Origin: a virus
Lineage: Duplodnaviria > Heunggongvirae > Uroviricota > Caudoviricetes
DNA: 64,000 nt
Virus record (IMG/VR): IMGVR_UViG_3300020718_000011
Span: 1-64,000 of that record
Reading direction: 5' to 3' (one strand)
A program made the translations under genes and the position numbers. This document shows, one piece after another, positions 277 to 48,385 of this stretch; position 1 is the first letter of the stretch, and every line of letters begins with the position of its first letter. The notes under the pieces are model-generated. The model had not been told where the DNA came from. It worked only from the letters and a program-made list of their open reading frames with translations, and did no database searches.

Positions 277-531
277 ATGTTTAATATTATTTTTCTTGGG
301 CTTTTTATAGTATCATGTATTTCTATATTTCTAATACCAAAAAAATTAATAGAAAAGATTGATAATTTATTGTCACCTAAGTATTATATTTCAATAAAGG
401 ATGAGATTAAGATGGGTAAGATAAAGGATTATGAAATTCATCTAAAAAATGATCTGGATCCTCTTCCATTAGAAATACAAAAAAAAGGAGAGAAATTAAC
501 TAAAGCTTATCATCTACTAAAAAGGAAATAG
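277..531 (+). CDS. small membrane protein, KLTKAxxLLKRK C-tail family
   Basis: 84-aa ORF; N-terminal TM helix; C-terminus GEKLTKAYHLLKRK matches the tail motif shared by about 10 ORFs in this window. Confidence 0.45.
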   Translation: MFNIIFLGLFIVSCISIFLIPKKLIEKIDNLLSPKYYISIKDEIKMGKIKDYEIHLKNDLDPLPLEIQKKGEKLTKAYHLLKRK

Positions 532-532
532 A

Positions 533-832
533 ATGTTTGATGAAATAGAAGATATAGATAGGGCAATATCAAAATTGAGGGATAGAGAAGCCGATTTATT
601 TATTCAATTGGACAAGGAGAGAAAAAGGAATATGTCCAATAAGGATCCCATAGAGGAAAAGATGGCCCGTGAAATGAAACTCCAGATGGATGCCGGTGCT
701 ATAATTTATGCTATCTCTGGATATGAAGAATCCAAACGTTACATATTAAAGAATCGTGCTCTTCGGAGATGGCTCTATTGTATTGTTGGTTTATCAATAC
801 TTGGTTTATATGTAATCATAAAACATTTATAG
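533..832 (+). CDS. hypothetical protein with C-terminal TM segment
   Basis: 99-aa ORF starting 1 nt after the previous stop; coiled-coil-like N-terminus and hydrophobic C-terminus. Confidence 0.4.
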   Translation: MFDEIEDIDRAISKLRDREADLFIQLDKERKRNMSNKDPIEEKMAREMKLQMDAGAIIYAISGYEESKRYILKNRALRRWLYCIVGLSILGLYVIIKHL

Positions 833-949
833 TTATGTTTTTAAATTCAACACAAGGATTACCAAATATGGGAATTTTTAATGATCTATTTATATTCTTA
901 GGAATTGTTATGATAATTTCTTATTTATGGATTAAATCAAACACTAAAA

Positions 950-1201
950 ATGGGAATGAAAAAGAAAACACCAGCGGAGGAATCGAATGATACAAAAATT
1001 TTGAGTGCAATACCAATGACTCTTCATGAGTTTCATTTGGAGCAATTTCCCAATAATGTGATGATTAGTCAGCCATTCACACACGGATACAAGGTCACTT
1101 ATGCAGATGGGTATATTTCATGGTGTCCAAAAGATATTTATAATCGTTTAAATCAAACTAATGAAAAAGCAAATGTTTCTCTTCCTACTACTCTTGCTTA
1201 G
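950..1201 (+). CDS. hypothetical protein
   Basis: 83-aa ORF in the plus-strand block; overlaps neighbouring ORFs, so start and reality are uncertain. Confidence 0.3.
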   Translation: MGMKKKTPAEESNDTKILSAIPMTLHEFHLEQFPNNVMISQPFTHGYKVTYADGYISWCPKDIYNRLNQTNEKANVSLPTTLA

Positions 1202-1442
1202 TGGATGTAGTGGTGAATTAGATCCAAGCAAGGATTGGAGAATATCCAAAAAAACTATTTATACCGAATACGTAAGTCAGTTGGGATTATCTTCTTATAA
1301 GGTTACTGATGGTACCAATTCAGAGATTTTTGATGACTCCACCTATAAATACCATGTAGGAGATACTATTGGGCATCATAAATTTATTCCTGAACCTACT
1401 GTTGATAGCTCGAGGCGGGACAGTTTGAAACTATTAAAATAA
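1161..1442 (+). CDS. putative lipoprotein
   Basis: N-terminus MKKQMFLFLLLLLSGCSG is a signal peptide with an L-S-G-C lipobox. Confidence 0.4.
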   Translation: MKKQMFLFLLLLLSGCSGELDPSKDWRISKKTIYTEYVSQLGLSSYKVTDGTNSEIFDDSTYKYHVGDTIGHHKFIPEPTVDSSRRDSLKLLK

Positions 1443-1449
1443 TCCGGAT

Positions 1450-1611
1450 ATGAAATTACTAATCACAATAGTCTTAATCCTAGCTATTATATTTTCGGTA
1501 ATACAAATTATCGTAACTATTAATTGCTTCAGGAATAAATGGTCACAAAACTTTTTTGCCCTGATAATGGCAGCAATTTTTTGGGGTATATTTTACTACC
1601 TCAAAAGTTAA
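1450..1611 (+). CDS. small membrane protein (53 aa, below ORF-track cutoff)
   Basis: Read by hand: ATG..TAA ORF encoding two hydrophobic helices (MKLLITIVLILAIIFSVIQIIV...), in otherwise ORF-free DNA. Confidence 0.3.
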   Translation: MKLLITIVLILAIIFSVIQIIVTINCFRNKWSQNFFALIMAAIFWGIFYYLKS

Positions 1612-8655: not shown

Positions 8656-9255
8656 CTAGTTAATCCTATTACTCTTTTTAATATTATCAATTTTCCATAA
8701 TGGTTGAAAATTACTATAATGATTTAATTTAATAAGATCCTCTTCATTTAAAGCCGAACTAATAGGTATTATATGATCATATTCCCATTCACCATAATTA
8801 TTCCATGACATCCCATCCACGAATTTATTCTCTATCCATATTTTAAATTCTTTATACGAACAACCCAAGATTCTATATGTTTTTGATGTTTTTGTATATC
8901 CTTGATTTTTAATAGCATTTCTTATAAGATTTCTAATGTTACTACTCATTTTAAAAATAGGATCAATATTTCGTTTTTCGTTCACATAATTGTTTCTCTT
9001 TTTTCTAATTTTTGTTAGCTCTATTTCAGATTTTTTAATTGAACTTTTATCTTTAATTTTTACTTTTTCTCTATAATAATTTTTTGCATATTCGTTTAGT
9101 TTTTTTCTGTTATTTTTACTATATTGATTAGAATAATTTTTCCTTCTCCCTAACTCTTCGGGGTCCTTATGAGTTTCTAAATATAATTTAGTTCTATTAG
9201 AGATAGTTTCCTTGTTCTTTTTATAATATTCCTTATAATATTCTTTCCTATCCAT
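8656..9255 (-). CDS. HNH homing endonuclease
   Basis: C-terminal ILGCSY..W..DHIIPISSA...NHYSNFQPLW..DN..KSN His-Me finger motifs; Lys/Tyr-rich YYKEYYKKNKE N-terminal repeats. Confidence 0.8.
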   Translation of the reverse strand: MDRKEYYKEYYKKNKETISNRTKLYLETHKDPEELGRRKNYSNQYSKNNRKKLNEYAKNYYREKVKIKDKSSIKKSEIELTKIRKKRNNYVNEKRNIDPIFKMSSNIRNLIRNAIKNQGYTKTSKTYRILGCSYKEFKIWIENKFVDGMSWNNYGEWEYDHIIPISSALNEEDLIKLNHYSNFQPLWKIDNIKKSNRIN

Positions 9256-16259: not shown

Positions 16260-16622
16260 ATGAAAATTCTAAAATTGGCTGCATTGACAGCTATAGCCGT
16301 AAATGGCTCGAACACAGCAATCCCTGAATGGGCAAAAGAAAGTATTTGGGATCTTACAACAGAAGGTTATATAGCCCCACGGGTTATTGCTGCTGTTTCG
16401 GTAGATCCCCCGGGATACGTAGTAACAGAAAAAGGGCAGAAGCTGGTATCTATGTTGGAGGCATGTTCTGACTATTTCGGGGTGCACCAGGATCTAAAAG
16501 AGGGTGCAGCAGAAGCATACTCCGCAGCCAAAGAGGATACAGGAAAAATTATTAACGAGGGAAAGAAGAAGTTTAACAGTATGTTGGATTTTCTGAAAAT
16601 TCCATTACATGAAGAAAAATGA
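16260..16622 (+). CDS. putative secreted protein
   Basis: N-terminal MKILKLAALTAIAVNGSNTA signal-like segment; TGA/ATG coupling to rtcB. Confidence 0.45.
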   Translation: MKILKLAALTAIAVNGSNTAIPEWAKESIWDLTTEGYIAPRVIAAVSVDPPGYVVTEKGQKLVSMLEACSDYFGVHQDLKEGAAEAYSAAKEDTGKIINEGKKKFNSMLDFLKIPLHEEK

Positions 16623-17836
16623 CAGAAAAACAAATTGCAGTAGATTATTTCTGCGAACCTGATAAGATTGATGAGAATGCTAAAGCCCAATTAGACCAGT
16701 ATAGTAAAATGCCGGGATTGGAGAAGCTTTGTGCTTTCCCTGACATCCACTTTTGTGACGAGAAAGCCATTCCAGTAGGTGTGGCTTTCTCTACTCGGGG
16801 TATATTCTATCCACTCGTAACCGGCAAAGATGTTGGGTGTGGTGTTGGCTATGCCCGAATAGGAAAAAAGTATTTACTAAAACCTTTTGATAAGAGCAAA
16901 CATTACAATGCTTTGGAACGGGCTCATCGTGATATGACCGACGAAGGATTGGGGGGAGGAAATCATTTTCTATCTTTGGAAGAGGATGACGAATATCTTT
17001 ATGTCATTTGCCATACTGGTACAAGGAATAGGGGTATAGCTCTTTACCAAGAAGGCTATCAAATGGTAAAAGAATACTCCAATGAAATTGGGGAGGAGGT
17101 TAAGTATGTTTCCTGGGAATGGATGAGAGAGAAACATCCAGAATACTTAATGAGCGTTTTGAGAATTCCGGATTATGCAACCAAGCGCAGGGCGGATTTC
17201 GTATTCAAAACAATAACCTTCCTTCAAAAGAATGGGTATCTGGAAAACACAAAGCCCATAGAAAAAGATTACTTGTCCCGAGATTATTGGATTAAATCAA
17301 TAATGGATGAATACCATCCTGATCTTGGTATACCAGGGAAGGAGTGGCTCCCAAAGACAAAAAGGACTCCAATTGAAATAAATGGGATACCTTATGAGTG
17401 GCATGATTCGATGCACAATCATTTAGAATTCAAAGAAGATGGATCAATAATACACAGGAAAGGAAGTACGGAAATAAATCCTGGCGATGAGGTAGCTATT
17501 CCCCTTTCGATGACCAGGGGAACATTGATAGTAAAGGTTCATCCGTTTCATGATATAACAGGAGCACTTAATTCTTGTTCTCATGGAGCAGGTAGAAAGC
17601 TATCACGATTTGATTCCATGAAACATTGGCGAACAGTACTGAAGGCTAAGGAAAGAAAAGCATATGAGGAAAGGTTTTCGGAGCTACTTGATAAGAGTGG
17701 GAAATTTCCTTCTGGATACCTCCAGGAATTTGACTACGCATACAAAGATTCGTCGGACATTCTGACGATGCAACCATATTTAAGAAAGGTAACTCAAACA
17801 ATACCTATTGTAACTATTAAATACACAGAAATCTAA
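16619..17836 (+). CDS. rtcB: RNA-splicing ligase RtcB
   Basis: GKDVGCGVGYA, GGGNHFLSLEED, ICHTGTRNRG, WHDSMHNH and SHGAGRKLSR line up with RtcB metal/GTP motifs (GvDIGCGm, GGGNHF, HSGSRG, HNhA, HGAGR); 405 aa. Confidence 0.75.
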   Translation: MTEKQIAVDYFCEPDKIDENAKAQLDQYSKMPGLEKLCAFPDIHFCDEKAIPVGVAFSTRGIFYPLVTGKDVGCGVGYARIGKKYLLKPFDKSKHYNALERAHRDMTDEGLGGGNHFLSLEEDDEYLYVICHTGTRNRGIALYQEGYQMVKEYSNEIGEEVKYVSWEWMREKHPEYLMSVLRIPDYATKRRADFVFKTITFLQKNGYLENTKPIEKDYLSRDYWIKSIMDEYHPDLGIPGKEWLPKTKRTPIEINGIPYEWHDSMHNHLEFKEDGSIIHRKGSTEINPGDEVAIPLSMTRGTLIVKVHPFHDITGALNSCSHGAGRKLSRFDSMKHWRTVLKAKERKAYEERFSELLDKSGKFPSGYLQEFDYAYKDSSDILTMQPYLRKVTQTIPIVTIKYTEI

Positions 17837-20731: not shown

Positions 20732-21445
20732 ATGAAGAACCTTAAAGATATAAACGAATTCCTTAATGAGAACGAAGAATCTGTAACCTTTACGGGTGCG
20801 GATATGATTAATGGTACCAAAAAATGGGAAATTTGCGGTGAATATTTTGGAAGTTTGATGGGATTAAGTGAAAGGGAAAAGGCAGTTGCTGGTGAATTCG
20901 AATATCTTATATCAGAGGGGAAAGAACAATGGGATGATAAATGGGATGACTATGAAGATACGTTAGATGATGATGAGATAGATCTCAGTGAATACGTTCA
21001 AATGGAAACAGATGAAGAATTATTGGGCCATATGATCTGGAATACCGGGGATCAAGTCCATGATGGAGCATATACAGAAGAGGAAAATCCAGATGGAGGA
21101 TGGTTTAGTGAGGAGGATTTTGATATCGTTATGGAAAAATATGTTTTAGTACCGGGATTATCTAGACCAGACCATATAGAATTTTATTACCTAACTGGAA
21201 TGGCTTTTGTCAATTATATGATGGATAGAAATCCAGTCTTTTGTTGGAAATATTTAGGAAAGGACCAAGTTATTGATAGTATTAAGTCTAATGTAGAAAA
21301 AGGAGTTCCTATGGATTATCTCCAAATTATCAAAATGATGAATACCAAAATACCCAATATTAAACAAATCATGATTAAGAAAGGGATTAATATGGAACGA
21401 ATTAATAAATTATCTAAAGGCTTTCGTCTTCTCCAAAGAAAGTAA
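20732..21445 (+). CDS. acidic protein, MKxLK / KLxKAxxLLKRK family
   Basis: N-terminus MKNLKDINEFLNE and C-terminus GINMERINKLSKGFRLLQRK match the family motifs; highly acidic middle; ATATATA box upstream. Confidence 0.55.
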   Translation: MKNLKDINEFLNENEESVTFTGADMINGTKKWEICGEYFGSLMGLSEREKAVAGEFEYLISEGKEQWDDKWDDYEDTLDDDEIDLSEYVQMETDEELLGHMIWNTGDQVHDGAYTEEENPDGGWFSEEDFDIVMEKYVLVPGLSRPDHIEFYYLTGMAFVNYMMDRNPVFCWKYLGKDQVIDSIKSNVEKGVPMDYLQIIKMMNTKIPNIKQIMIKKGINMERINKLSKGFRLLQRK

Positions 21446-22514: not shown

Positions 22515-22838
22515 ATGGCTAAAAATAAAGAACGAATACTCTGTGCAGCTATACTTTTTAATGGAAGATTAGTAGCTGGGTATCGACATAGTGATTGCTA
22601 TGAATTAATAGAATCTTTGATCCCAGATTTAAAGTTACCAGAAAGCCTTCCTCATGGATTTCTTACATCTCATAAACGTTATGTGAGTAGGGAGGAAGGA
22701 TATTTGATTGCCAAGGAGAATGACCAATTGTTACTTAAACCAAAATTGGATGATAGAGGAGAAATACTAACCTCTGAGGATCTTTATTTTGATCCAGAGG
22801 ATTTCTTTGGATTAACAAAAAAAGTATATGTTGGTTAA
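22515..22838 (+). CDS. hypothetical protein
   Basis: 107-aa ORF. Confidence 0.45.
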   Translation: MAKNKERILCAAILFNGRLVAGYRHSDCYELIESLIPDLKLPESLPHGFLTSHKRYVSREEGYLIAKENDQLLLKPKLDDRGEILTSEDLYFDPEDFFGLTKKVYVG

Positions 22839-23061
22839 TTTTGCACCACTTACCCAAAATACATATAACATTATAAATATAATGGTTAATGATGGTGTTG
22901 TAGCAGATTATAAGAAATTGATTGGATTGGTTGAAAGTGACCTACCTGGTATAGATATAAGAAATGAAATGATTAGAAGGGGATTTGATTTCGAGAAGGC
23001 CATGAAATTAACTAGGGCCAAAATGATTCTAAAACGAAACCCTAATTCGTTTACCGAGTAA
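22828..23061 (+). CDS. hypothetical protein
   Basis: 77 aa; last gene of the plus block. Confidence 0.4.
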   Translation: MLVNFAPLTQNTYNIINIMVNDGVVADYKKLIGLVESDLPGIDIRNEMIRRGFDFEKAMKLTRAKMILKRNPNSFTE

Positions 23062-23305
23062 GTTTCTTATTATTTCCCAGCTGTACAAATATATCATGTG
23101 CATTACTATATGCTTCGTCAGTTGGACAATATGTGTGCCCATCTGGCATTAATTCTCCATAGCCGTTATTAGCAAACATATAAACCAGTGATGGCTTACT
23201 AGGCATTGTAGTTCTATTCGATACTATGGAGATTCCATTTATTACTAAGCTCCAAGAGGTTAGATCCATGGAAAATGTTAATGTGTAATAACTAGGTGAT
23301 GACAT
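23051..23305 (-). CDS. hypothetical protein (fibre module, distal)
   Basis: 84 aa, last gene of the minus-strand fibre operon. Confidence 0.4.
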   Translation of the reverse strand: MSSPSYYTLTFSMDLTSWSLVINGISIVSNRTTMPSKPSLVYMFANNGYGELMPDGHTYCPTDEAYSNAHDIFVQLGNNKKLTR

Positions 23306-23643: not shown

Positions 23644-23656
23644 TTTTTATTTTTTA

Positions 23657-27442: not shown

Positions 27443-27453
27443 TTTAACTTCTT

Positions 27454-27780
27454 TTATTTAACTACTGCCATAAAAGGGGAATTGTTTACCTTATGTCCAA
27501 TATCACCTCTAACAATATCTCCAACTTTTAATTGATAGTTAACATCGATAACAATATCACCATTAACTGTTATCTCATAATTTTTTATCATATTAACTGC
27601 ATCTTGTAATGGAATAGATATTAATTCTGCAACAAAATTAGGAAATGCTTCAATAGACAATCTCCTTGTCTTATCTGTTACCTTTGGGTAATATTTTTTA
27701 TACTTACTATTAAAATCCCTTCTTATCTGATCCTTTTGTTGGGCTTTAGATAAAATACCGGATCCATTTGAATTAGTCAT
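27454..27780 (-). CDS. small protein, possible S4-like fold
   Basis: C-terminal ITVNGDIVIDVNYQLKVGDIV resembles the S4 motif (VNG..V....L..GD.I); sits between two fibre genes. Confidence 0.3.
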   Translation of the reverse strand: MTNSNGSGILSKAQQKDQIRRDFNSKYKKYYPKVTDKTRRLSIEAFPNFVAELISIPLQDAVNMIKNYEITVNGDIVIDVNYQLKVGDIVRGDIGHKVNNSPFMAVVK

Positions 27781-29506: not shown

Positions 29507-29518
29507 TATATCCTTATT

Positions 29519-29701
29519 TTATTCTACGTAACCATCATCTACATATCCATCTACAATGTAATCGGATCCTTGTCCATATCCAGTAATTGCATATGTTAGT
29601 AATATTTCATTCCTATAAAGAACATATTTTCTCTCAATCTCTTGTTCAGAAAGATCCAGATACAAAAATTGCTCCTTAAATCTATCTAATGTAGGTACCA
29701 T
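29519..29701 (-). CDS. small hypothetical protein (first gene of fibre operon)
   Basis: 60 aa; ATATATA box just upstream. Confidence 0.3.
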   Translation of the reverse strand: MVPTLDRFKEQFLYLDLSEQEIERKYVLYRNEILLTYAITGYGQGSDYIVDGYVDDGYVE

Positions 29702-29747: not shown

Positions 29748-30539
29748 TTATTTTCTCTTTAGTAATTTGTTAGCCTTATCTAATTTAGTTAATCTTTCCA
29801 TTTCTATGCCTCTTGATCCCATTTTACTCTCTATATCAGGAATAGCTTGCTTAAATAAATTAATTATAAATCCATAATCTAACATAGTTCCCTGGTCAGA
29901 AATCTCTTTTAATTGGTCCAATACTAGATTTACCCCGGTATTTTCTCCGATACCTCCAACTAATTCATCCAATTTTTGAATTATGTGTACTGCGTCCCGA
30001 TTTTTATATAGTTCAGTCTTAAAGAAATGGTCAGTTATGAAAGTTCTCATTCTACCTGTTTTAGTTGCTCCCAAAAATATAAAATGTTTGGTTCTAGCTT
30101 CCATTTCAATAATAAACTTACCAACTGTGGGTGGAAGAGGTGGCTCCCATTCATTAAATGTCCTACCACCATTTAGACTATGGTGTGGAGAAACATCGTC
30201 AATCGTCATAAAAAAGAAGATCCTTTTATAAATTTCGCTCTGGCATCCTCTTTCCCAATCTTCCTCAGCCTTTTCCATACATTCATTGTATTCATCTGTA
30301 CCCTCTTCAAATTCAATAAAATCCCCGTCTACATCATCAAAAAATATGGTTGAAATATCAGCGGGGGTGCCTTTTTGTGGTTTTTCTTCAGAAAGTGGAT
30401 ATAGTGTAAAAAGCATACCACCGGTCTCATCATTCCCTTGGGGAACGCCCCACCAACAGTAGCTATTAATCCACCTTTTATTAGAGGGGGCTACTTCTGA
30501 CTCATTTAAGAAATTATCCCAATTAATTATTTTTCCCAT
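29748..30539 (-). CDS. acidic protein, KLTKAxxLLKRK C-tail family
   Basis: C-terminus SRGIEMERLTKLDKANKLLKRK; N-terminus MGKIINWDNFLNE resembles 20732-21445. Confidence 0.55.
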   Translation of the reverse strand: MGKIINWDNFLNESEVAPSNKRWINSYCWWGVPQGNDETGGMLFTLYPLSEEKPQKGTPADISTIFFDDVDGDFIEFEEGTDEYNECMEKAEEDWERGCQSEIYKRIFFFMTIDDVSPHHSLNGGRTFNEWEPPLPPTVGKFIIEMEARTKHFIFLGATKTGRMRTFITDHFFKTELYKNRDAVHIIQKLDELVGGIGENTGVNLVLDQLKEISDQGTMLDYGFIINLFKQAIPDIESKMGSRGIEMERLTKLDKANKLLKRK

Positions 30540-30542
30540 AAG

Positions 30543-30552
30543 GTATATATAG
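30543..30552. promoter_or_regulatory. palindromic TATATATA box in 27-nt divergent intergenic region
   Basis: aggtatatatagaaaaataatcaagc lies between divergent family genes 30539(-) and 30567(+). Confidence 0.3.
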
Positions 30553-30566
30553 AAAAATAATCAAGC

Positions 30567-31229
30567 ATGAAACATTTAAAACAATTCTTATTAAATGAGG
30601 GAAAAATATCTAAAGATATTTTAAATTCTATTATTAGTTTAGATAGATGGGGAGCATTTGAGCTTTATATTAAATGTATTACACCTGATACAGAAGAAGG
30701 AATAGCAATACAAAAAGAAATGATAAGCTGTTTTAGCCAAGGAAAAGGGGAATGGGATGTAGGTACAGATCTATATAGAGAGGATGAATTGGAAAATATT
30801 CAAAATGGTACATATGTACAGGATCAGAATGATATGGAATTAATTATCAATATCTGGCAATCAGTTATTGATAATGCCGATGTTGATAATAATTTTGGAA
30901 ATGTTGAAATCCATTCAAATGATGCGGAAAAATTCGGAGAAGAATATATGTACGATTCTAATGATTCCTTTATAGCAGAATTAGAGCCCCTCGAATTCTT
31001 AGAAGAAGTAATAATTAGGATAGATCCAGAAATAGAAAAATTAATAAATTCAGGATCCATTAAAAATGCAGTGGGAATGGGTATTATAGTAGATTATGAT
31101 CTACTATTACCGATTATTTTTAAACTTTACCCACCAATAGAGAAGAAATTTAGATTAGAGGGTGTAGATGTAGAAAGAATGAATAAATTAACAAAGGCAT
31201 CAAGAATTTTGATTAGAGGAAAAAATTAA
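30567..31229 (+). CDS. acidic protein, MKxLK / KLTKAxxIL family
   Basis: N-terminus MKHLKQFLLNEG; C-terminus GVDVERMNKLTKASRILIRGKN; divergent from 29748-30539 with a shared palindromic TATATATA box between them. Confidence 0.5.
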   Translation: MKHLKQFLLNEGKISKDILNSIISLDRWGAFELYIKCITPDTEEGIAIQKEMISCFSQGKGEWDVGTDLYREDELENIQNGTYVQDQNDMELIINIWQSVIDNADVDNNFGNVEIHSNDAEKFGEEYMYDSNDSFIAELEPLEFLEEVIIRIDPEIEKLINSGSIKNAVGMGIIVDYDLLLPIIFKLYPPIEKKFRLEGVDVERMNKLTKASRILIRGKN

Positions 31230-37810: not shown

Positions 37811-38230
37811 ATGGCTAGAAGTAAATATAAAGAAATAAAAGACGCATCCCCATATTTTATTTTCTCTTTTGTGTTAATGATATTAACATTTTTGTTTATA
37901 ATTATAACTAAAGAAGAAAAAATGGAAATAAGTCATACCAGCTTATTCAAGTTAATTATTACTATTTCCCTTCTTTTTTCTATTTTTCTATTTTCAATAG
38001 GGGAATCATATGATCCAACATTAGATAGTGAGTATACCAAACTTAATCATATAAAGGATGGATTGGATTTTTTAATTGATGGTGATATAAGAAATTATAT
38101 AGAAACATCTCACAAATATTCTATTCCTAATTATGATAATTTAGTATTGAATTTAGCTAAAAAGAAAGGAATTGGGTTAAACATACTTAGAAAAAGAATT
38201 AAAGCTTCCAAAATATTAAATAGAAAATAA
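37811..38230 (+). CDS. membrane protein, weak member of the LLKRK C-tail family
   Basis: Two N-terminal TM helices; C-terminus GIGLNILRKRIKASKILNRK. Confidence 0.45.
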   Translation: MARSKYKEIKDASPYFIFSFVLMILTFLFIIITKEEKMEISHTSLFKLIITISLLFSIFLFSIGESYDPTLDSEYTKLNHIKDGLDFLIDGDIRNYIETSHKYSIPNYDNLVLNLAKKKGIGLNILRKRIKASKILNRK

Positions 38231-39141: not shown

Positions 39142-39717
39142 TTATTTTCTTAGTAATAATTTGGCTGCCCTTATTCTTTTTTCTATTCCTCCCAAATCTC
39201 CCCCTTCTTGAACCCACTTATCTTTAATTCTTTCTTCCCAATCTCTTATAAAAAATCCATTAAATATATCTACGTATTTACTTAAATTTGTTTTCAAAAG
39301 AGTTAAAGCATAATCCACATATAGTTCTTTATATTCTTCTGAATTGATAAGTTCCCAGAAACTACCCTTCGTATCTTGGCCATTATAATATTCCTCTTTC
39401 CATCTTGGTCCATAACCATATAGTTCATTTAGTTCCCCCGGATTTTTTTTACTTATTCTATAAGTAACAATTGTATCAACCCCATTCATTGGAGCATATA
39501 AACAAAATATATTCTCTCCCGTATAGTAATACCCCCATAATTTTTTACCCATTTCTCCATTTTTTGGTAAAATAAATTCTAATTGAGGATTTTTATCAAA
39601 CATTTCCTCAATCTCTGGGTATTGATTTAAAAAAGCCCAAAAATCATCAATTTGGGTAAACATATTCATTATGGGAGGATTAATAGACAACTCCTCATAT
39701 AGTTTTAAATGCTTCAT
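39142..39717 (-). CDS. MKxLK / LLLRK C-tail family protein
   Basis: Track ORF extends to 39882; the internal Met gives the family N-terminus MKHLKLYEEL and has an ATATATA box upstream; C-terminus GGIEKRIRAAKLLLRK. Confidence 0.5.
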   Translation of the reverse strand: MKHLKLYEELSINPPIMNMFTQIDDFWAFLNQYPEIEEMFDKNPQLEFILPKNGEMGKKLWGYYYTGENIFCLYAPMNGVDTIVTYRISKKNPGELNELYGYGPRWKEEYYNGQDTKGSFWELINSEEYKELYVDYALTLLKTNLSKYVDIFNGFFIRDWEERIKDKWVQEGGDLGGIEKRIRAAKLLLRK

Positions 39718-40590: not shown

Positions 40591-41343
40591 TTGGCATTAA
40601 AAATAATTAGAATTTTTATGTTGTCTTGGTTCAAAAAATTTGGGGGAAAAGATAATTCACCTAAACCGGATTTAAGTGAATTATTTACTAGTAAAAAATA
40701 TCAGGATATCTTTCAATTGTTTGGAATCCATAGGGTGTATACGCCTGAAAAGATTAAGGATGATCCGAAAAATAAAGAGATGGGATGCTTAAAAATTGGG
40801 TGGTATTATTGTTATGAATTAGATAATGGAATTCTGGAAAATCCAGCCCTTTGGGGATTATTTTATCCTTTACTATTTCCAATTAAAGAAGCAGAAACTT
40901 TACAATTTGCTTCTATTATAGTTTATGGAAAAGAGAAGCGACGCCATATTATAAATAAGGCAACTCAAAGTATTACTGTTGGCCCTGCTTCTATAGAAGA
41001 ATTGGAAATGGCTATTTCCATACATTTCATTATGTGTATGAATGATCTAATAGAAAAGGGTAATATAATAAATTATTCCTGTATACCAAATCTAATTTAT
41101 GTTAGGATGATTGAGCATTGTTTATTATATCCCACTAGACCAGATGGATATAATCCGGTTGGAGTATTAATCTCAACATTGAATTCCTGTATACAAAAAG
41201 GAGATATATTGGATTATAAACATATAATAAAACAATCAGAAAAAATATGTACTAGTGATACTATTATCTCAGGAATCCAGGATATTAAAAGAATGGAGAA
41301 CTTAACAAAAGCGCACTCCCTCCTAAAAAGGAAACATAAATAA
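40591..41343 (+). CDS. KLTKAxxLLKRK C-tail family protein
   Basis: C-terminus GIQDIKRMENLTKAHSLLKRKHK; the IS element begins just after its stop; the true start may be Met-10 (MLSWFKKF). Confidence 0.5.
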   Translation: MALKIIRIFMLSWFKKFGGKDNSPKPDLSELFTSKKYQDIFQLFGIHRVYTPEKIKDDPKNKEMGCLKIGWYYCYELDNGILENPALWGLFYPLLFPIKEAETLQFASIIVYGKEKRRHIINKATQSITVGPASIEELEMAISIHFIMCMNDLIEKGNIINYSCIPNLIYVRMIEHCLLYPTRPDGYNPVGVLISTLNSCIQKGDILDYKHIIKQSEKICTSDTIISGIQDIKRMENLTKAHSLLKRKHK

Positions 41344-41346
41344 CTA

Positions 41347-42314
41347 TATAGGTATAGGCGTTTAGATCGCAATGCTGTAGCTTTGCCTTATGGAGAGGCG
41401 AATTACCTTTGCAGGTGTGAATTCAATTATGTTCCACCAACGGTTTAAAACAGACGACGACTGCCTGGAATATTTATCTGGCGTTAAATGGGAGAATGGA
41501 TTTAGCTGTAAGAGATGCAACAATGATAAATATTGTGCTGGTAAAAAGCCGTTCAACAGACGATGTACCAAATGTCGGTATGAGGAAAGTCCAACATCGG
41601 GTACTATGTTTGACAAGGTTAAATTTTCAATTTTAAAGGCATTTCACATTGCTTTTAAAATAAGTACAAAGAAGAAAGGGATGTCCAGTTTAGAGTTAAG
41701 CAATGAGTTTGACCTGCGCCAAAAGACTTGTTGGGAGTTTAAATGGAAACTACAGCAGGCCATGGCAAGCAGTCTAAAATACCCTTTAACAGGAACGGTA
41801 CACGTAGATGAGTGTTACATTGGGGGCCCCGAAGAGCAAAAAAGAGGTAGAAGTAAAGGCGATAAAAAACTCATTGTTTTAGTATTAGAGATTATTGATG
41901 GTGGTGTAGGCAGAGCATATGCTGAAGTGATAGAACATTCATCGGCTAAAGAATTGGGCGCATTTTTGAGGAAATATGTATCCAAGGATGCAAAGATTAT
42001 ATCGGATGAATGGCTCGGTTATACTCCCTTAAAAACAGAATTTACGAAATTGGAGCAAGTGGCATCGGATGACGGAAAAAACTTTAAAGACATACACATT
42101 CATATAATGAATATAAAAAGCTGGTTAAGAGGTATTCACCACCATTGCAGTAAGGAACGTATTCAAGGATACCTGGATGAATATCACTTTAGATATAACA
42201 GAAGACAAAAAATGGGGGTAATCTTTGATTCCCTTATAAAACGAATGGTCAAAAATGATCCAATACGCTTGTTATCAAAGGATTGATATTGCGACCTAAG
42301 TGCCTATACCTATA
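41347..42314 (+). mobile_element. IS1595-family insertion sequence (about 970 bp)
   Basis: Single transposase ORF flanked by 13-bp terminal inverted repeats TATAGGTATAGGC (41347-41359) / GCCTATACCTATA (42302-42314), and ACTA immediately outside both ends (candidate 4-bp target duplication). Confidence 0.65.
41390..42286 (+). CDS. IS1595-family transposase
   Basis: N-terminal zinc ribbon (CKRC...CTKC) and the hallmark VDECYIGGPEE (DEtyIGG) of ISXO2-like/IS1595 DDE transposases. Confidence 0.75.
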   Translation: MERRITFAGVNSIMFHQRFKTDDDCLEYLSGVKWENGFSCKRCNNDKYCAGKKPFNRRCTKCRYEESPTSGTMFDKVKFSILKAFHIAFKISTKKKGMSSLELSNEFDLRQKTCWEFKWKLQQAMASSLKYPLTGTVHVDECYIGGPEEQKRGRSKGDKKLIVLVLEIIDGGVGRAYAEVIEHSSAKELGAFLRKYVSKDAKIISDEWLGYTPLKTEFTKLEQVASDDGKNFKDIHIHIMNIKSWLRGIHHHCSKERIQGYLDEYHFRYNRRQKMGVIFDSLIKRMVKNDPIRLLSKD

Positions 42315-43775: not shown

Positions 43776-43863
43776 TTAGTACTGAGCCTCTAAATAATGG
43801 AGTTCCCTAAAAAGGCTCCATTATTTAGTGTAAATGTATATGGGTTTCATCATATATACTTAT

Positions 43864-44541
43864 ATGAAGAACCTACTATTACTATTTGGGTTTATATTCC
43901 TAAGCCTGATAGCTTGCTCGTCCAAAAGAAGCTTTACGAAAGCAGTTCAAAAATCAACAAATTCGGTAGTAAGAGTAGTAGTCTATCTTCGAAATCCAAA
44001 TAACGATTCATTACAGGTTTACAAAATAGGATCAGCAATAGTAATCAAGAAGGAAGGATATATTGTTACCTGTAATCATATTATAGAATGTGCAGATAGT
44101 ATATTAGTGATAGCTAAATCTGATACACTAACTGCAAAAATAGTAAATCATAATCCTAAATTAGATATAGCTCTTCTAAAAGTTCATCAAGTCTCAAACT
44201 TGATCCCTATTAATATAGGAACTTCTAAATATTTAGAAGTCGGAGAACCAATTTTAAATATTGGATATCCTCTTTACTTAGGTAAAACAGTTACTTCCGG
44301 AATTGTTAGTGCAAGAATGAAATACCCAGATACTACTGTAGTTAATATGACTTATATCCAAACAGATGCAGTACTCAACCCCGGTAATTCTGGAGGAGCA
44401 CTTGTTAATATTGATGGAGAGTTAGTAGGAATAAATGGTATGCTCGTATCAATGACAGGATACTACATTGGATATTCCTTTGCAATTCCTATTGATGAAG
44501 TTCTTCCTACTTTAAATAAATGGATAGAGAAGGATAAGTAA
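43864..44541 (+). CDS. trypsin-like (S1) serine protease, lipoprotein
   Basis: MKNLLLLFGFIFLSLIACSS signal/lipobox; TCNHII..(His), DIALLKV (Asp), NPGNSGGALVN (Ser) catalytic-triad motifs in S1/HtrA order; start trimmed from 43834. Confidence 0.75.
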   Translation: MKNLLLLFGFIFLSLIACSSKRSFTKAVQKSTNSVVRVVVYLRNPNNDSLQVYKIGSAIVIKKEGYIVTCNHIIECADSILVIAKSDTLTAKIVNHNPKLDIALLKVHQVSNLIPINIGTSKYLEVGEPILNIGYPLYLGKTVTSGIVSARMKYPDTTVVNMTYIQTDAVLNPGNSGGALVNIDGELVGINGMLVSMTGYYIGYSFAIPIDEVLPTLNKWIEKDK

Positions 44542-44739: not shown

Positions 44740-45540
44740 TTAAAAAATTCCTTCTGGGTCTTCATCATCAGGAAGCCTATTGTCTAAATTCATAATTCGT
44801 AGATTCTCCTGATTCTTTAGTTCAATTCTTTCTGCTCTAGATAATACAACAGGACTATTCCTTTTCATTAAGTTTGCAGCAGCTGATAATTTTTTAGCTC
44901 TTTGAACATTCAATTTATTAAGTTCGGATGGTAATATTTTATTTTGGTCTATTAATTCCTTAAAAATAACTTCATAATTAATTAGAACCCCTGAATCTAT
45001 CATCTTTTTAATTGGACCTATCGCCATATCAGCGGAGTCAGGAAGTAACCAAATAAGTATATTTTTCGAAATTGGATTATCCCAAAATATTTTTTGGGAT
45101 AATAAATCTATAAATCCTATACCATTTTCTTTCATTGCAGTAATCTTATTCCTGTTATAGGTTCTTTTATTTTCATATCCATAAGCTACATTAGGATCAT
45201 TATCATTCTTAACCTTATTTAATTCAACTGCCGCCTGGTAGTAAACAAATTTACGAATACTAGTATTCCAATCATCTAAGGTTTCCATTTTAAGCCCATT
45301 AAGAATAATATACCTATCCTCTATTCTACCCTTCTTAGGGTAAAAAATATAAGTTCTTCCCATCAAATTTTCGTCTTTATGAAAAAATTCTACCTTTCTA
45401 GCACCAGAACCAGTCTCCTTATAAGGGACAAATCTCATTTCAAAACCTTTCCATACATCTTTCATGGCTGGAAGATTATTAAGTTGTTCGATAGTAGGAA
45501 TACTATCCCAATTTTCCGTTAATGGTATTAAATGTTTCAT
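44740..45540 (-). CDS. MKxL family-like protein with C-terminal extension
   Basis: Internal start gives MKHLIPLTENW; QRAKKLSAAANLMKRN tail motif followed by a 40-aa extension. Confidence 0.45.
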   Translation of the reverse strand: MKHLIPLTENWDSIPTIEQLNNLPAMKDVWKGFEMRFVPYKETGSGARKVEFFHKDENLMGRTYIFYPKKGRIEDRYIILNGLKMETLDDWNTSIRKFVYYQAAVELNKVKNDNDPNVAYGYENKRTYNRNKITAMKENGIGFIDLLSQKIFWDNPISKNILIWLLPDSADMAIGPIKKMIDSGVLINYEVIFKELIDQNKILPSELNKLNVQRAKKLSAAANLMKRNSPVVLSRAERIELKNQENLRIMNLDNRLPDDEDPEGIF

Positions 45541-45620: not shown

Positions 45621-46559
45621 TTATTTTCTCCTTAGTAGATGGAATGCCTTTGTTAATTTTTTTGCCCGTATCATATCATCACCATAGAACTTAACCTTTG
45701 GATATTCCTTTAACATCTCTATATAATCACAAAGGATACCATTCCTAATACCTTTATCGAAAAGATCCTGTAAATTAATACCCATTTTAATTAAGTCCTG
45801 TTCATTGTTACCAAGATCCGGTAACATCTTAAGCATAACACTATAGTATATTTCTACTATATCTTTAGGCCTATTAACCAATTGGATTAATTCTTCCTTT
45901 CTTTTTCCCAATTGGATTAAAGAATAAGTAATACTTCCATGATTTTTCTTTACGAATTCTTCCATATTAGATATAACTATTGGTCGTATACTATCTAATA
46001 AGACCTTTTTATCTATTCCAATGAATCCAACGATGTCATCCAACTTCATTTTAACCTGTCTTGGCCCATCTCTTACTATAATAATCTTCGTATACCCTTC
46101 AAAGTATCCAAGGAAAATGGGATTTAATGATTCTAATAATTCCTCTTTTGTAAATCCAAGAGTAATAAATCCATTGATATGATCTCCCAATGCTACTAGA
46201 CCGGCATGGGTATTAATTACCATCTGGGCATATTGTACAAGACTTGTTGTTACAAGCCCTTTAATTTTTTCTACCAATTCTCTTTCGGCAAAACCTAAAC
46301 TAATATATTCATTTTCCTTATTTTTTAAGGAATCTATTTTTTCGCCGTTGATAATAACGCTTTTGGCTTCCTTTGCAAAATCATTAAATACTAAATCCCT
46401 GATACCAGATAGTAATTTATCCCTATTAGCCCCATTTTTAATATAACCATTAATTTTTGCACGAAGAAGGCCGATCTTACCAAGGCCATTTGTGGTCTTA
46501 AAGAAGCTACGCAACTCATCAACATAGTCTATATCTTTATAGAACTTCAAATTCTTCAT
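45621..46559 (-). CDS. MKxLK / KLTKAxxLLRRK family protein with internal repeats
   Basis: N-terminus MKNLKFYKDIDY; C-terminus DDMIRAKKLTKAFHLLRRK; internal GFTKEELLESL.. repeats shared with 47579-48385. Confidence 0.55.
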   Translation of the reverse strand: MKNLKFYKDIDYVDELRSFFKTTNGLGKIGLLRAKINGYIKNGANRDKLLSGIRDLVFNDFAKEAKSVIINGEKIDSLKNKENEYISLGFAERELVEKIKGLVTTSLVQYAQMVINTHAGLVALGDHINGFITLGFTKEELLESLNPIFLGYFEGYTKIIIVRDGPRQVKMKLDDIVGFIGIDKKVLLDSIRPIVISNMEEFVKKNHGSITYSLIQLGKRKEELIQLVNRPKDIVEIYYSVMLKMLPDLGNNEQDLIKMGINLQDLFDKGIRNGILCDYIEMLKEYPKVKFYGDDMIRAKKLTKAFHLLRRK

Positions 46560-46580
46560 TACTCTATTTATCCATTATGT

Positions 46581-47075
46581 TTAGTGCAATATATGTAGTA
46601 AAATTGCTAATAGAAGAAGAGAAGAAAGCATACCCAGGGCAAACCAAATAAATTTGGCCAATCGTGGAGTTTTTTTATCCTCTACCTTGATGAGATCACT
46701 ATTTTTAGCATTGATATATTTTTCTAGCGTTTCCTGGTTAACCCCTGCCTTAAGAAGTAATTCCTTTTGAGTTATTAATGAGTTAACAATATCTCTGGAT
46801 ATTACTAGTTGATCCTCGTACTCCTTTTTTGCATAGGTGTATAGAGACTCAATTTTATTGGAAATTTTTCCGAGATCCCTACCCAATTCCTCCAGGTTTT
46901 TGCTATCTAATGGATTAGATTCTTGGAGATTCCAATCGGTTCCATAAGTATTCTTTTCTACTTGAGAAACTAGGGTACCAAGGAATTTTTCTACCTCTTC
47001 TTTGGAATTAAAGTTTCTCGTGATACTTAATTTTAACATGGTATCAGTAAATTTTGATGTTAACAATGAAAACAT
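46581..47075 (-). CDS. tail-anchored coiled-coil membrane protein
   Basis: 164 aa; C-terminal TM helix FIWFALGMLSSLLLLAILLHIL; canonical minus-strand promoter upstream. Confidence 0.45.
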   Translation of the reverse strand: MFSLLTSKFTDTMLKLSITRNFNSKEEVEKFLGTLVSQVEKNTYGTDWNLQESNPLDSKNLEELGRDLGKISNKIESLYTYAKKEYEDQLVISRDIVNSLITQKELLLKAGVNQETLEKYINAKNSDLIKVEDKKTPRLAKFIWFALGMLSSLLLLAILLHILH

Positions 47076-47079
47076 TTAA

Positions 47080-47135
47080 TAATATACAAATGTAATGAAT
47101 TGTTTTGACATAAAAAAATACCAAAAGTTAAAGAT
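47080..47135 (-). promoter_or_regulatory. class-A phage promoter on minus strand
   Basis: Reverse complement reads ctttaacttttggtatttttttatgtcaaaacaattcattacatttgtatatta; drives 47075 and probably 46559. Confidence 0.55.
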
Positions 47136-47282
47136 TTTATAAAGTAGCTTTAATTTATATAAACGATAAAATAGAATATCCATCTATTCCCGAAATTTTA
47201 TAGCAATAAAAAGCAAAGGAAATAGAACGTCTCTTGGTCTTTAAAACCTCTCCTGTTTCTGGATTAAATAAATCTAATGTGC

Positions 47283-47582
47283 TCACATTAAAATCATATT
47301 TACGTCCAATATATCCGGAATTTTTTGTTTGCTAACGGTTGTAAAAATTCTAATCACATCATATGGTTTAATTCCTTCATCAAATTCTGCAACAAAATAT
47401 CTATCATTTTGATACAAAACATTAAACATAAAGGAACCCTTCCCTTCAAAATGTTTTATAATATAAGGAAGTAAGTCCTCCGGAATGCTTGAATTTGTGG
47501 TAGATATCATGATATAATTACCAAGACTAAATAGTGCTTTAGTCCAATCACTTAATTGTTCATATATCTTTAGATACTTCAT
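47283..47582 (-). CDS. small protein with family N-terminal motif only
   Basis: MKYLKIYEQLSDW N-terminus but no LLKRK tail; ATGA-coupled to the upstream gene. Confidence 0.4.
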   Translation of the reverse strand: MKYLKIYEQLSDWTKALFSLGNYIMISTTNSSIPEDLLPYIIKHFEGKGSFMFNVLYQNDRYFVAEFDEGIKPYDVIRIFTTVSKQKIPDILDVNMILM

Positions 47583-48385
47583 TTTCTTTTTAGTAATTTG
47601 TATGCCTTGGTTAATTTGTTTGCTTTGTCCAATTCCTCTGGAGTAATTTCAATAGAAGGATATTTAGCTAACAATTCTTTGTAATCCATCAAAAACCCTT
47701 TCCTTATTCCACCTATAATAATATACTCTGACTTATCTATAATATCCTTCCTGTATTGTGGTAGTTTTAGGTATTCATCAAATAGGATATCATAAAAAGA
47801 ATCCATTAATCTATTTGGAGTATTAACTAATTCTAATAATTCACCCAATTTCCTTTTAATATACACAAATGGAGAAATTGAATTAATCATCATCTTAATA
47901 TACCTATCCATTCCTTCTATGACCAAATCCTCTATTAATCCCTTTAGATGTGATCCTTCTATACCAAGATCTTTATTCCAAGAATTAATTTTTAACTTGA
48001 CGTAAAAAGGTCCATTTGAACCTTTTAACATCATATTAGTGTAATCTATAAATCCTTGATCTATAATAGGTATTGCTCTGGTTATTAATTCATCTCCATT
48101 AAATCCAAGATTTATAAAATCATCCAATTTATTTTTTATAAATCTAGTATTGTCAGTCGATCCAATCATCATCTTGACATATTTTTCGAACCACTCTAGA
48201 ACTATATCATGAATACTGTCCAATAGATCTTCTTTTGGTATTCCAGCTTCTATGAAAATTTCCATATTTTGTTTAATGTATTTACTCGCATTGCTAGAAC
48301 CTATAAACATCCTGGTATATCTTATAAATTCTTGTATTCGTGGGTCTTCTGGATTGAAAGTCTCAAATATCTGGATATATTTCAT
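47579..48385 (-). CDS. MKxLK / KLTKAYKLLKRK family protein with internal repeats
   Basis: N-terminus MKYIQIFETF; C-terminus EELDKANKLTKAYKLLKRK; three internal Y..MMIGS..FIK.KL..F..LGF..EL repeats. Confidence 0.55.
   Translation of the reverse strand: MKYIQIFETFNPEDPRIQEFIRYTRMFIGSSNASKYIKQNMEIFIEAGIPKEDLLDSIHDIVLEWFEKYVKMMIGSTDNTRFIKNKLDDFINLGFNGDELITRAIPIIDQGFIDYTNMMLKGSNGPFYVKLKINSWNKDLGIEGSHLKGLIEDLVIEGMDRYIKMMINSISPFVYIKRKLGELLELVNTPNRLMDSFYDILFDEYLKLPQYRKDIIDKSEYIIIGGIRKGFLMDYKELLAKYPSIEITPEELDKANKLTKAYKLLKRK

Follow-up and report, generated by a model that had tools for sequence, protein, structure and literature searches.

The internal proteins of bacteriophage T4 have diverse bodies, and the only element common to all of them is a cleaved N-terminal tag of ~10 amino acids (PMC3012670, PMC8442874), which loads them into the prohead before it is cleaved off (PMC8442874, PMC3012670). 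For the huge phages phiKZ and SPN3US, head-internal proteins with multiple paralogues are reported, together with a prohead protease that cuts them at x-x-E (PMC5694885, PMC7411985). The P22 scaffolding protein gp8 has an acidic body (pI 4.8, net -14) and a basic end; its last 40 residues have a pI of 10 and a net charge of +5, ending in ...KGDVETYRKLKAKLKGIR. C-terminal cargo-loading peptides bind the shell of encapsulins, and phi29 p16.7 consists of a membrane anchor and a small helical DNA-binding domain. The cleavage motif of the phiKZ/SPN3US type is (S/A/G)-x-E.

Approximately 12 proteins of an uncultivated freshwater phage of ~474 kb, whose host probably belongs to the Bacteroidota, end in one previously undescribed four-helix domain of ~60 residues, here called the module. 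We analyzed a 64,000-nucleotide stretch of this phage, referred to as the window. A first-pass annotation of the window had described a family of about 10 proteins; all ten translations agreed with ours, and the C-terminal element is present in 10 of 10. This element, common to otherwise unrelated proteins, defines a real family that is larger than described, as an additional member lies in the window at 22828-23061 and a fusion to DUF6011 lies past its right end. Most of the start positions given earlier stand, and three (39142, 40591 and 44740) were corrected. The members and related features, including an N-terminal tag (N-tag) discussed below, are as follows.

277..531, plus strand: 84 aa; N-terminal transmembrane (TM) helix, then the module; leave-out HMM E 3e-4.
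20732..21445, plus strand: subfamily A; 237 aa; N-tag MKNLKDINEFLNE; acidic, all-helical body (pI 4.1, net -31); module 178-237; E 9e-13; ATATATA box 6 nt upstream of the ATG.
22828..23061, plus strand: new member; 77 aa; stand-alone module with a 6-aa extension; E 6e-24, leave-out E 2e-10; the database gene call is shorter (59 aa from 22882).
29748..30539, minus strand: subfamily B; 263 aa; degenerate N-tag MGKIINWDNFLNE; acidic body; module 205-263; E 3.5e-12; orthologue L007a 56% identical.
30540..30566, no strand: divergent intergenic region of 27 nt; palindromic box GGTATATATAGA common to members 29748 and 30567, its motif on both strands at 30544-30553.
30567..31229, plus strand: subfamily A; 220 aa; N-tag MKHLKQFLLNE; acidic body; module 162-217 plus 3 aa; E 4e-10.
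37811..38230, plus strand: 139 aa; two TM helices, then an E-type module variant (..RKRIKASKILNRK).
39142..39717, minus strand: subfamily E; 191 aa, as in the database gene call; corrected start 39717; N-tag MKHLKLYEEL; module 135-191; E 5e-5 with the orthologue excluded.
40618..41343, plus strand: subfamily F (ORF 40591, start corrected to the ATG at 40618); 241 aa, as in the database gene call (P0005, 241 aa); no N-tag; module 183-239 plus 2 aa; E 4e-8; an IS1595 transposase lies directly 3' (41390-42286).
44740..45540, minus strand: subfamily D; 266 aa; start at 45540 or 45552; N-tag MKHLIPLTENW; module 171-228, then a 38-aa acidic extension; relatives P0016 (60% identity) and P0012 (43%); E 3e-9 with the subfamily excluded.
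45621..46559, minus strand: subfamily C; 312 aa; N-tag MKNLKFY; 4-5 tandem repeats of ~46 aa; module 262-312; E 4e-8.
47283..47582, minus strand: ORF with N-tag only (MKYLKIYEQL); 99 aa; module absent; start overlapping the 47579-48385 stop.
47579..48385, minus strand: subfamily C; 268 aa; N-tag MKYIQIFETF; four ~46-aa repeats; module 211-268; E 2e-8.
53469..53822, plus strand: ORF with an N-tag-like start (MKTIKEFDNYTPLNE); 117 aa; no module; conserved on related contigs; ATATATA box 6 nt upstream.
L029 16176-16841, ~6 kb right of the window: member with a DUF6011 body; 221 aa.

Membership was assessed with leave-out profiles. With an 11-member profile, each held-out member came immediately below the training set in a ranking of 926+ six-frame ORFs (E 1e-12 to 2e-3), the exception being 37811 (E 0.1). 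A 31-sequence profile comprised the window members plus relatives, with orthologues dropped together with the tested member. It recovered 277 (E 3e-4), 37811 (2e-4), 39142 (5e-5) and 44740 (3e-9), compared to E 0.03-0.19 for the best non-member, so that alignment and HMM analysis of the C-termini recovers all members at E 3e-4 to 1e-12. An ORF at 50770-50904 on the minus strand was considered as a module relic (E 0.03) and dropped, as the tail is absent in every frame.

The genome has ~33% GC and is rich in K, L, I and N, and the tail alone is short, features that favor reading the element as a compositional artifact of K/L-rich ends in an AT-rich genome. The tests that were run refute this reading and leave it next to no probability. 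Leave-out E-values reach 1e-12 and the best non-member lies ~100-fold or more away, contradicting a K/L-rich background, an objection that the first-pass annotation had itself raised. Moreover, an exhaustive search of 1.84 billion proteins returned only ~23 clusters, all of them on contigs related to this phage and all carrying the module at the C-terminus. Finally, Tyr, Gly and Pro residues are conserved 20-40 residues N-terminal to the tail, and the fold is predicted with confidence.

The conserved tail reported earlier is real, but alignment and AlphaFold2 (AF2) models show it to be part of a folded domain of ~60 residues rather than 13-20 residues. Its consensus, over ~55-60 aa, is h..hK..h-G-h-h-(D/N)-Y-..hh......-P-.I.......-G-h-D-.-E-R-..-K-L-T-K-A-..-L-L-K-R-K, in which the Tyr and the penultimate Arg are invariant (31/31 sequences) and the K, L, K, A, L and L positions are 81-90% conserved; K-L-T-K-A-x-x-L-L-K-R-K forms the last helix. 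The stop codon follows within 0-6 residues of the module end in 28 of 31 sequences, and subfamily D has an extension of 26-38 aa beyond it. The AlphaFold check proposed in the first-pass annotation gave confident models for the products of 22828 (pLDDT 88; four helices, 6-21, 28-38, 44-50 and 55-70) and 20732 (pLDDT 84, pTM 0.73), with module helices at pLDDT 89-97. As had been noted, conservation is at the protein level and is not that of a DNA repeat: the last 16 codons share 53% nucleotide identity, and identical residues use the same codon in 51% of cases. The module matched no entry in Pfam, PHROGs, PDB or BFVD, in agreement with the earlier statement that no described domain resembles the tail.

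The module is basic (pI 9.1-10.2 in 29 of 31 sequences), and the net charge of the last 20 residues is +2 to +7, compared to body pI values down to 4.1. When the last helix is drawn as a helical wheel, its conserved basic residues (K..K...L..RK, next to the invariant Arg) line up in one stripe, opposite the conserved hydrophobic positions. To judge from this pattern, the stripe would be an exposed docking surface for one common polyanionic partner.

The proteins to which the module is attached are diverse. Once the module is cut off, BLAST separates the bodies into at least six mutually unrelated groups; besides these subfamilies there are membrane-anchored (277, 37811, P0022, P0024), stand-alone (22828, P0014, P0013) and DUF6011 forms. 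The acidic bodies, the internal repeats of 45621 and 47579 and the TM helices of 277 and 37811 are present as first reported. The acidic bodies have pI values of 4.1-4.7 and net charges of -16 to -31; in subfamilies A and B, bodies in this pI range are joined to modules of pI 9-10 in all-helical models. The DUF6011 body scores 41.2 bits against PF19474 (cut-off 26.6), Pfam gave no DUF6011 match in other members, and a literature search on DUF6011 returned nothing. Homologue searches with the subfamily E body and with a 577-aa fiber-like protein returned close relatives only. In 7 of 11 pairs of orthologues or paralogues, the module is better conserved than the body. It is at least as conserved as the bodies, confidently folded, fused to unrelated bodies and also found alone.

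One interpretation of this diversity is that the module serves homo- or hetero-oligomerization or structural capping and derives from a common ancestor, with duplication and fast divergence of the bodies and with no shared external partner. We consider this improbable. Bodies of different subfamilies have no detectable similarity, which makes domain shuffling likelier than divergence. The existence of stand-alone and TM-only forms points to a function in the module itself, and the conserved basic stripe would point outward, opposite the hydrophobic face. An origin of the module from helical-repeat (ARM/HEAT-like) proteins would predict homology to the 46-aa repeats of subfamily C; hhalign aligned the two in a plausible register but without significance (P = 0.2), and the module HMM gave partial, weak matches beside the terminal module.

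The second shared element, the N-tag, spans ~12 residues with the pattern MK(H/N/Y)(L/I)K..(F/Y)..(L/I)xE. A position-specific scoring matrix (PSSM) of residues 2-11, built leaving out one subfamily at a time, ranked the window members of the omitted subfamily right behind the training genes among 121 genes, bearing out the shared N-terminus described earlier. The motif also reported in 47283-47582, an ORF that was never in the training set, scored 13-16 bits in every leave-out PSSM. By this analysis the N-tag does not depend on either the body or the module; it is missing from the membrane-anchored and DUF6011 forms. Of the 11 window members, 6 have an (L/I)xE site between residues 4 and 16, compared to 14 among the 110 other genes (Fisher p = 0.003, a significance inflated by paralogy); most N-tagged relatives have the site as well. 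The N-terminus of the 20732 model is disordered (pLDDT 52-62).

The N-tag resembles that of T4 IPI, IPII, IPIII and Alt (MKTYQEFIAE): in both cases, unrelated proteins carry an N-terminal MK-x-h-(K/Q)-x-F and an (L/I)-x-E site, and the loci are diverse and fast-evolving. ORF 53469 starts with MKTIKEF, compared to MKTFKEF in T4 ipI. However, the family PSSM for residues 2-11 left ipI, ipII and ipIII outside the top 15 of 155 T4 ORFs, and we therefore treat T4 as an analogy and not as a family assignment. The T4 proteins lack a conserved C-terminal domain, whereas the defining element here is C-terminal and is found on membrane proteins as well. There is no homology between the two. In the ~90 kb of the 474-kb contig that were read (the window plus 10-kb flanks), no structural genes were recognized, among them a gp21-type prohead protease or a gp22-type scaffold core. 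The inner-body proteins of phiKZ and SPN3US likewise have multiple paralogues per huge phage, but their genes lie in structural clusters, and a BFVD search found no sequence or fold relation. A further parallel is phi29 p16.7: members 277 and 37811 have one or more N-terminal TM helices followed by a small basic helical domain facing the cytoplasm, an orientation suggested for 277 by the KK after its TM helix. Here, however, DNA binding by the module is something we infer.

We tentatively prefer an explanation in which the module is a docking domain that binds one common partner, likeliest DNA, and the N-tag is a capsid-targeting or processing tag; the family would then be, equally tentatively, a lineage-specific set of modular accessory proteins. 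Each protein would have up to three parts: the N-tag, a freely exchangeable body (acidic helical, an array of 46-aa repeats, DUF6011, or a membrane anchor alone) and an autonomous C-terminal four-helix domain. The basic stripe would bring all members to one polyanionic partner, likeliest phage genome DNA, and the N-tag would be a separate signal for capsid targeting or processing. Tagged members would enter the prohead and be trimmed after (L/I)xE, and the C-terminal domain would hold them on the packaged DNA for injection with the genome, like the T4 internal proteins. Untagged members, membrane-anchored or with DUF6011, would use the domain in the infected cell, for example in tethering phage DNA to the membrane. 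The functional hypotheses of the first-pass annotation are borne out in part, in that the shared folded module and the N-tag are real and the function is one that we infer. A broader and rather improbable proposal is that the N-tag and C-terminal domain form a two-part megaphage addressing system, in which the peptide would load a variable set of effectors into the giant capsid, the domain would keep them on DNA or a capsid receptor for delivery along with the genome, and membrane-anchored copies would receive or organize that DNA in the cell.

Alternatively, the module could be a cargo-loading domain that docks on the procapsid interior or scaffold, like an encapsulin cargo-loading peptide or the basic C-terminal helix-loop-helix with which the P22 scaffolding protein binds coat protein. 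The acidic helical members would then be scaffold, inner-body or cargo proteins, and the membrane-anchored ones would tether assembling proheads to the membrane; in T4, prohead assembly takes place at the membrane through gp40, annotated in the T4 record as "membrane-associated initiator of head vertex assembly". The module is nearly always at the protein end, and the all-helical, very acidic subfamilies A and B with their basic C-terminal domain have the charge layout of P22 gp8, in which an acidic helical body precedes a small, strongly basic helix-turn-helix that docks electrostatically on its partner. This layout may hint at what the module works like, not at membership: the module HMM scores gp8 at -0.4 bits, with no sequence similarity, and the module has four helices, ~60 aa and an invariant Tyr and is carried by ~12 distinct proteins, some of them membrane-anchored. 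A set of twelve scaffolds, each built differently, would be unusual. Gene regulation bears on this explanation as well as on the preferred one. At least 6 members have an ATAWATA box 3-17 nt before the ATG; orthologues keep the box, which is distinct from the host-type TAnnTTTG class. This promoter-like box also precedes the first gene of a tail-fiber-like operon flanked by two members, which favors procapsid docking, but the DUF6011 member has a host-type promoter. Furthermore, the member genes lie dispersed between homing endonucleases and an IS1595 element, not in a head-gene cluster. Taken with the distribution described next, procapsid docking seems unlikely.

The module has a narrow distribution. 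A single-protein scan of IMG/VR gave no match, and the module was not found in 185,579 species genomes. A degenerate nucleotide pattern encoding KLTKAxxLL[KRQ]RK-stop had 0 matches in IMG/VR and recovered only member 277 from metagenome contigs; its 2 matches in species genomes, in Kaistella and a Loki archaeon, were chance, neither being the module. Megablast and tblastn searches of INPHARED phages were negative for the region, for the module and for the 500/608-aa proteins. The module is also absent from the whole genome of the 735-kb phage LR756501, whose RtcB is 46% identical and which has homologues of just 8 window genes. The clade and predicted host of that genome are confirmed in the Mahaphage literature. 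The absence of the family from a phage that shares RtcB argues against a core assembly function, and thus against procapsid docking. At the same time, with the module absent and only 8 genes shared, LR756501 is unusable for inferring the type of head assembly.

This distribution is compatible with proteins that are never packaged. The module could dock intracellular effectors for take-over or anti-defense, possibly DNA mimics, on a single hub of host or phage origin (for example the nucleoid, RNA polymerase, ribosome or a replication compartment), with the N-tag as a stability or translation feature. We regard this alternative as possible but doubtful. Consistent with it, the module is found alone and joined to membrane anchors that face the cytoplasm, as would suit a general adaptor, and DNA mimicry would be in keeping with the acidic bodies. 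The region is accessory and rearranging, with homing endonucleases, the IS1595 element and a 16.7-kb inversion polymorphism, and the family turns over quickly in orthologue comparisons and is missing from the distant relative LR756501. However, an unpackaged adaptor leaves the amino-acid-level conservation of the N-terminal peptide on unrelated bodies unexplained, and the main promoter class is not host-type. In addition, apart from the DUF6011 body, neither bodies nor module match PADLOC-independent known families (Pfam, PHROGs).

Huge phages are known almost exclusively from metagenomes, and most of their genes are unannotated. A domain and a peptide that mark ~12 unrelated proteins provide a way into this unannotated gene space, because they imply a common destination or partner. 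The 60-aa domain merits a family entry in either case, with 31 sequences aligned, and the 77-aa stand-alone protein (22828) is an easy biochemical target. Were the module to act as an adaptor that binds DNA or a hub, it would define a novel small fold with this function. Should the tags signal loading or delivery, sequence alone would be enough to predict which proteins a megaphage injects, and the tags could be reused for loading foreign proteins, as was done with the T4 tag. Should two-part addressing prove true, it would constitute a new, sequence-recognizable cargo-loading code through which the injected proteome of uncultivated huge phages could be read from metagenomes.

The ten open reading frames (ORFs) singled out by the first-pass annotation all translate as stated, and the C-terminal element that they share is real. 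However, it is not the basic tail of 13-20 residues described there: alignment of the last 60 residues defines a folded module of approximately 55-60 residues, consisting of an amphipathic helix, a second helix opened by G-h-h-(D/N)-Y, a short third helix opened by Pro, and a fourth helix with the pattern G-h-D-x-E-R-x-x-K-L-T-K-A-x-x-L-L-K-R-K. A six-frame scan added an eleventh member, 22828-23061, consisting of little more than the module. In leave-one-out searches of more than 900 six-frame ORFs, each held-out member ranked directly after the training members (E 1e-12 to 2e-3), with the exception of 37811 (E 0.1; members are named by start coordinate). A 31-sequence profile that included database relatives regained the four weakest members at E <= 3e-4, with the best non-member at 0.03. 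A compositional artefact was excluded as the source of the similarity. The tails are 53% identical in nucleotides, and where residues are identical their codons agree only about half the time; therefore, the similarity lies at the protein level and not in the DNA, as had been proposed. A recurrent best non-member (E ~0.03) was a 45-residue ORF, 50770-50904 on the minus strand (GKSIIDYILLLNNSDGFMPTIESK), which resembles the middle of the module. No tail helix was found for it in any frame, and it may be a module relic or a chance likeness.

With the module removed, the bodies form groups that mutually lack BLAST similarity.

Body types of the family
Subfamily A: 20732 and 30567, pI 4.1, net charge as low as -31
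Subfamily B: 29748, acidic body
Subfamily C: 45621 and 47579, four or five repeats of ~46 residues
Subfamily D: 44740, extension of 26-38 residues beyond the module
Subfamily E: 39142
Subfamily F: 40591 (start corrected to 40618)
Membrane-anchored forms: 277 (one TM helix), 37811 (two TM helices) and database relatives P0022 and P0024
Stand-alone forms: 22828 and database relatives P0014 and P0013
DUF6011 fusion: one protein of 221 residues, ~6 kb right of the window end, body matching Pfam DUF6011

Whichever body is attached, the module keeps a basic character, with a pI of 9.1-10.2 in 29 of 31 sequences and a net charge of +2 to +7 in its last 20 residues. In 7 of 11 orthologue or paralogue pairs, its conservation exceeds that of the body. 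It thus behaves as an independent, shuffled domain. Charged residues beside the TM helices suggest that the module of membrane-anchored members faces the cytoplasm. One explanation, which we consider unlikely, is that the module docks onto the capsid interior or scaffold. The P22 scaffolding protein gp8 has a matching charge layout, with an acidic helical body and a basic C-terminal helix-loop-helix, but its sequence is not similar to the module. The membrane-anchored and DUF6011 members argue against packaging as the module's own function.

The window belongs to a 473,921-bp contig (ENA ERZ27271905 k141_26427), and shorter, near-identical copies occur in freshwater metagenome assemblies (JGI and Logan). 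Its GC content is 33%, and its genes are short and densely packed. Recognisable genes encode RtcB, an SPFH protein, a Mu Gam-like protein, an IS1595 transposase, a lipoprotein-type trypsin-like protease, and GIY-YIG/NUMOD3 and HNH-like homing endonucleases. Lipobox signal peptides among the products, the near absence of Shine-Dalgarno cores (7 of 121 genes), and a TTTATTAcATTTGTcTtATA element, strongly conserved and placed 19-29 nt ahead of some 10 start codons, suggest a Gram-negative host, probably a member of the Bacteroidota; the element includes TAnnTTTG, the Bacteroidota -7 box. One gene points to a relative:

16619-17836 (+), RtcB RNA ligase, best match (46% identity) in the 735-kb 'uncultured phage' LR756501

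Within the Mahaphage clade, LR756501 is the largest genome, with Bacteroidetes as predicted host (PMC7162821). Only eight genes, RtcB and seven others, are common to the window and LR756501, which makes the two phages distant relatives.

Exhaustive searching with HMMER across 1.84 billion representative proteins (E <= 1e-3) returned 25 matches, two of which were repeat-driven false positives in eukaryotic proteins. Among the 23 true matches, the module lies at the C-terminus or a few residues from it, except in subfamily D representatives, where 26-30 residues follow it. Eight are window proteins and the rest are on other lake-metagenome contigs of 0.5-118 kb; two of these, L006 with three members and L007 with four, have clear orthologues in syntenic positions. 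None of the matches fell outside the window on the 474-kb contig, so within this genome the members occupy a single region. Inspection of 10 kb on either side revealed no member to the left and, to the right, only the DUF6011 fusion. The module was not found in LR756501, INPHARED (tblastn) or IMG/VR, and a degenerate tail pattern matched only twice in 185,579 species genomes, both times by chance. Member proteins that were looked up carried no names in their sources. The view of the first-pass annotation that this is a real family matching no known domain stands, with no relative in Pfam, PHROG, PDB or BFVD, although the element is a domain and not a tail. The domain and family are undescribed and, judging from the sequences searched, the family is small, young and clade-restricted.

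At least six members (20732, 29748, 30567, 39142, 47579 and 45621, the last with GATAAATAGA) carry an ATAWATA box 3-17 nt before the ATG. Several homing-endonuclease genes, the opening gene of the 23051-29701 operon and ORF 53469 are likewise preceded by the box.

Genes with a (G)ATAWATA(G) box 3-17 nt before the start codon
Minus strand: 8656, 29519, 29748, 39142, 47579, 51178, 57813, 58632
Plus strand: 20732, 30567, 53469, 54922

A start codon follows within 40 nt for 18 of 53 strict matches (expected, 3.8%). The 27 nt that separate the divergent 29748 and 30567 are filled by a palindromic copy, and orthologues on L006 and L007 have kept the box upstream. It differs from the host-type (TAnnTTTG) class, which precedes none of the window members and is present at the DUF6011 member. 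We interpret the box as a second, promoter-like class; because it is so near the start codon, transcripts would be almost leaderless. The operon 23051-29701 (-), flanked by members 22828 and 29748, encodes ORFan proteins, including paralogous N/S/T-rich proteins of 577 and 608 residues with beta-helix or pentapeptide-like repeats. These two share the N-terminus M.LIL..DKGS.LT..E.D.NF with the 138-residue product of 21489-21905 (+). No named homologues of them were found; by composition, they look like tail fibres. If the operon truly encodes tail fibres, the box may mark a late class.

A 16.7-kb segment (47.13-63.92 kb) is inverted in another population. Contig L004 (JGI 3300021139) is 100% identical to the window from 51131 to 47127, then resumes at 63888 to 64000 and runs on past the window end; these two matches have 37 nt in common, and the overlap falls precisely on a 42-nt inverted repeat. 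One breakpoint is ~115 nt from ORF 47283, placing family genes at a recombination-prone junction.

Repeats, mobile elements and a protease gene
47127-47168 and 63883-63924, inversion arms, 42-nt inverted repeat
47084-47152, 51885-51940, 54797-54874, 56696-56773, with further copies at 56836-56910, 59605-59682 and 60032-60095, ~65-nt intergenic cassette carrying the host-type promoter element (…TTTATTACATTTGT…)
41390-42286 (+), complete IS1595-family transposase (zinc ribbon and DDE domain), directly downstream of member 40618-41343
8656-9255 (-), 51178-51795 (-), 57813-58337 (-), 52561-53394 (-), 54922-55734 (+), 58632-59330 (-), homing-endonuclease-like genes (at least six)
43834-44541 (+) and L006 9183-9857, lipoprotein-type (periplasmic) trypsin-like protease, adjoining a subfamily D member in both

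Both arms of the inversion fall within or next to copies of the cassette, which recalls the mobile promoter cassettes that mediate gene shuffling in T4-type phages. Three of the homing-endonuclease-like genes are paralogous, ending in ..LW..DN.KKSN.I.; a fourth, 52561-53394 (-), has its tblastn match in the same part of LR756501, with homologues clustering at 601-602 kb. The set also includes two GIY-YIG/NUMOD3 genes. The protease and the subfamily D member have opposite relative orientations in this phage and in the 118-kb L006, indicating a local inversion.

Seven window members share a related start (MKNLKDINEFLNE, MKHLKQFLLNE, MGKIINWDNFLNE, MKHLKLYEEL, MKHLIPLTENW, MKNLKFYKDI and MKYIQIFETF), and most relatives begin likewise. 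When a PSSM of residues 2-11 was built with one subfamily left out and scored on 121 genes, the window members of that subfamily ranked directly after the training genes, bearing out the shared N-terminus. The PSSM also consistently picked ORF 47283-47582 (99 residues, no module), never in training, as already noted in the first reading; ORF 53469, starting MKTIKEFDNYTPLNE, is a second case with the peptide and no module. The peptide usually closes with (L/I)-x-E (6 of 11 members versus 14 of 110 other genes; p = 0.003, although paralogy inflates the significance). Positions 17-37 of the module HMM (helix 2 to Pro) weakly match this region of 47579 and of 53469. This likeness (E 0.006 for 47579 in a 3-sequence search) is not significant, and only hints that the peptide and helix 2 may be related or complementary. 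T4 internal proteins carry a capsid targeting sequence, MKTYQEFIAE, which is removed by the prohead protease and is the sole feature common to these otherwise diverse proteins (PMC8442874, PMC3012670). The peptide resembles it in position, length, amphipathic MK-start and x-E end. However, the PSSM placed ipI, ipII and ipIII outside the top 15 of 155 ORFs in the first 100 kb of T4, so the likeness is one of kind, and the two sequences cannot be shown to be the same; another phage would presumably carry a tag of its own.

The analysis shows a C-terminal domain that is folded, basic and conserved and that occurs on unrelated bodies, on membrane anchors and as a stand-alone protein; a distinct peptide at the N-terminus accompanies it. 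Most simply, every member would be docked onto one common partner by the basic stripe of this domain; that it is a plain oligomerisation or capping domain seems quite improbable. Alternatively, the module could be an adaptor bringing non-packaged effectors to a host or phage hub, which we consider doubtful. The N-terminal peptide common to members speaks against a purely intracellular role. We tentatively prefer a model, itself held with low confidence, in which the partner is DNA and the N-terminal peptide is a capsid-loading or processing tag. The basic stripe would contact DNA, the peptide would load members into the capsid or mark them for processing, and tagged members would, like those of T4, be internal proteins injected along with the genome. 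Members that lack the tag and are anchored in the membrane would keep that DNA there. Diverse phage proteins marked by a common targeting element are known among the T4 internal proteins and the MuF-type polymorphic toxins, and the general design is familiar from scaffold and encapsulin cargo signals. The family offers a clean, testable handle on unannotated megaphage sequence, but it is clade-restricted and its function is as yet putative.
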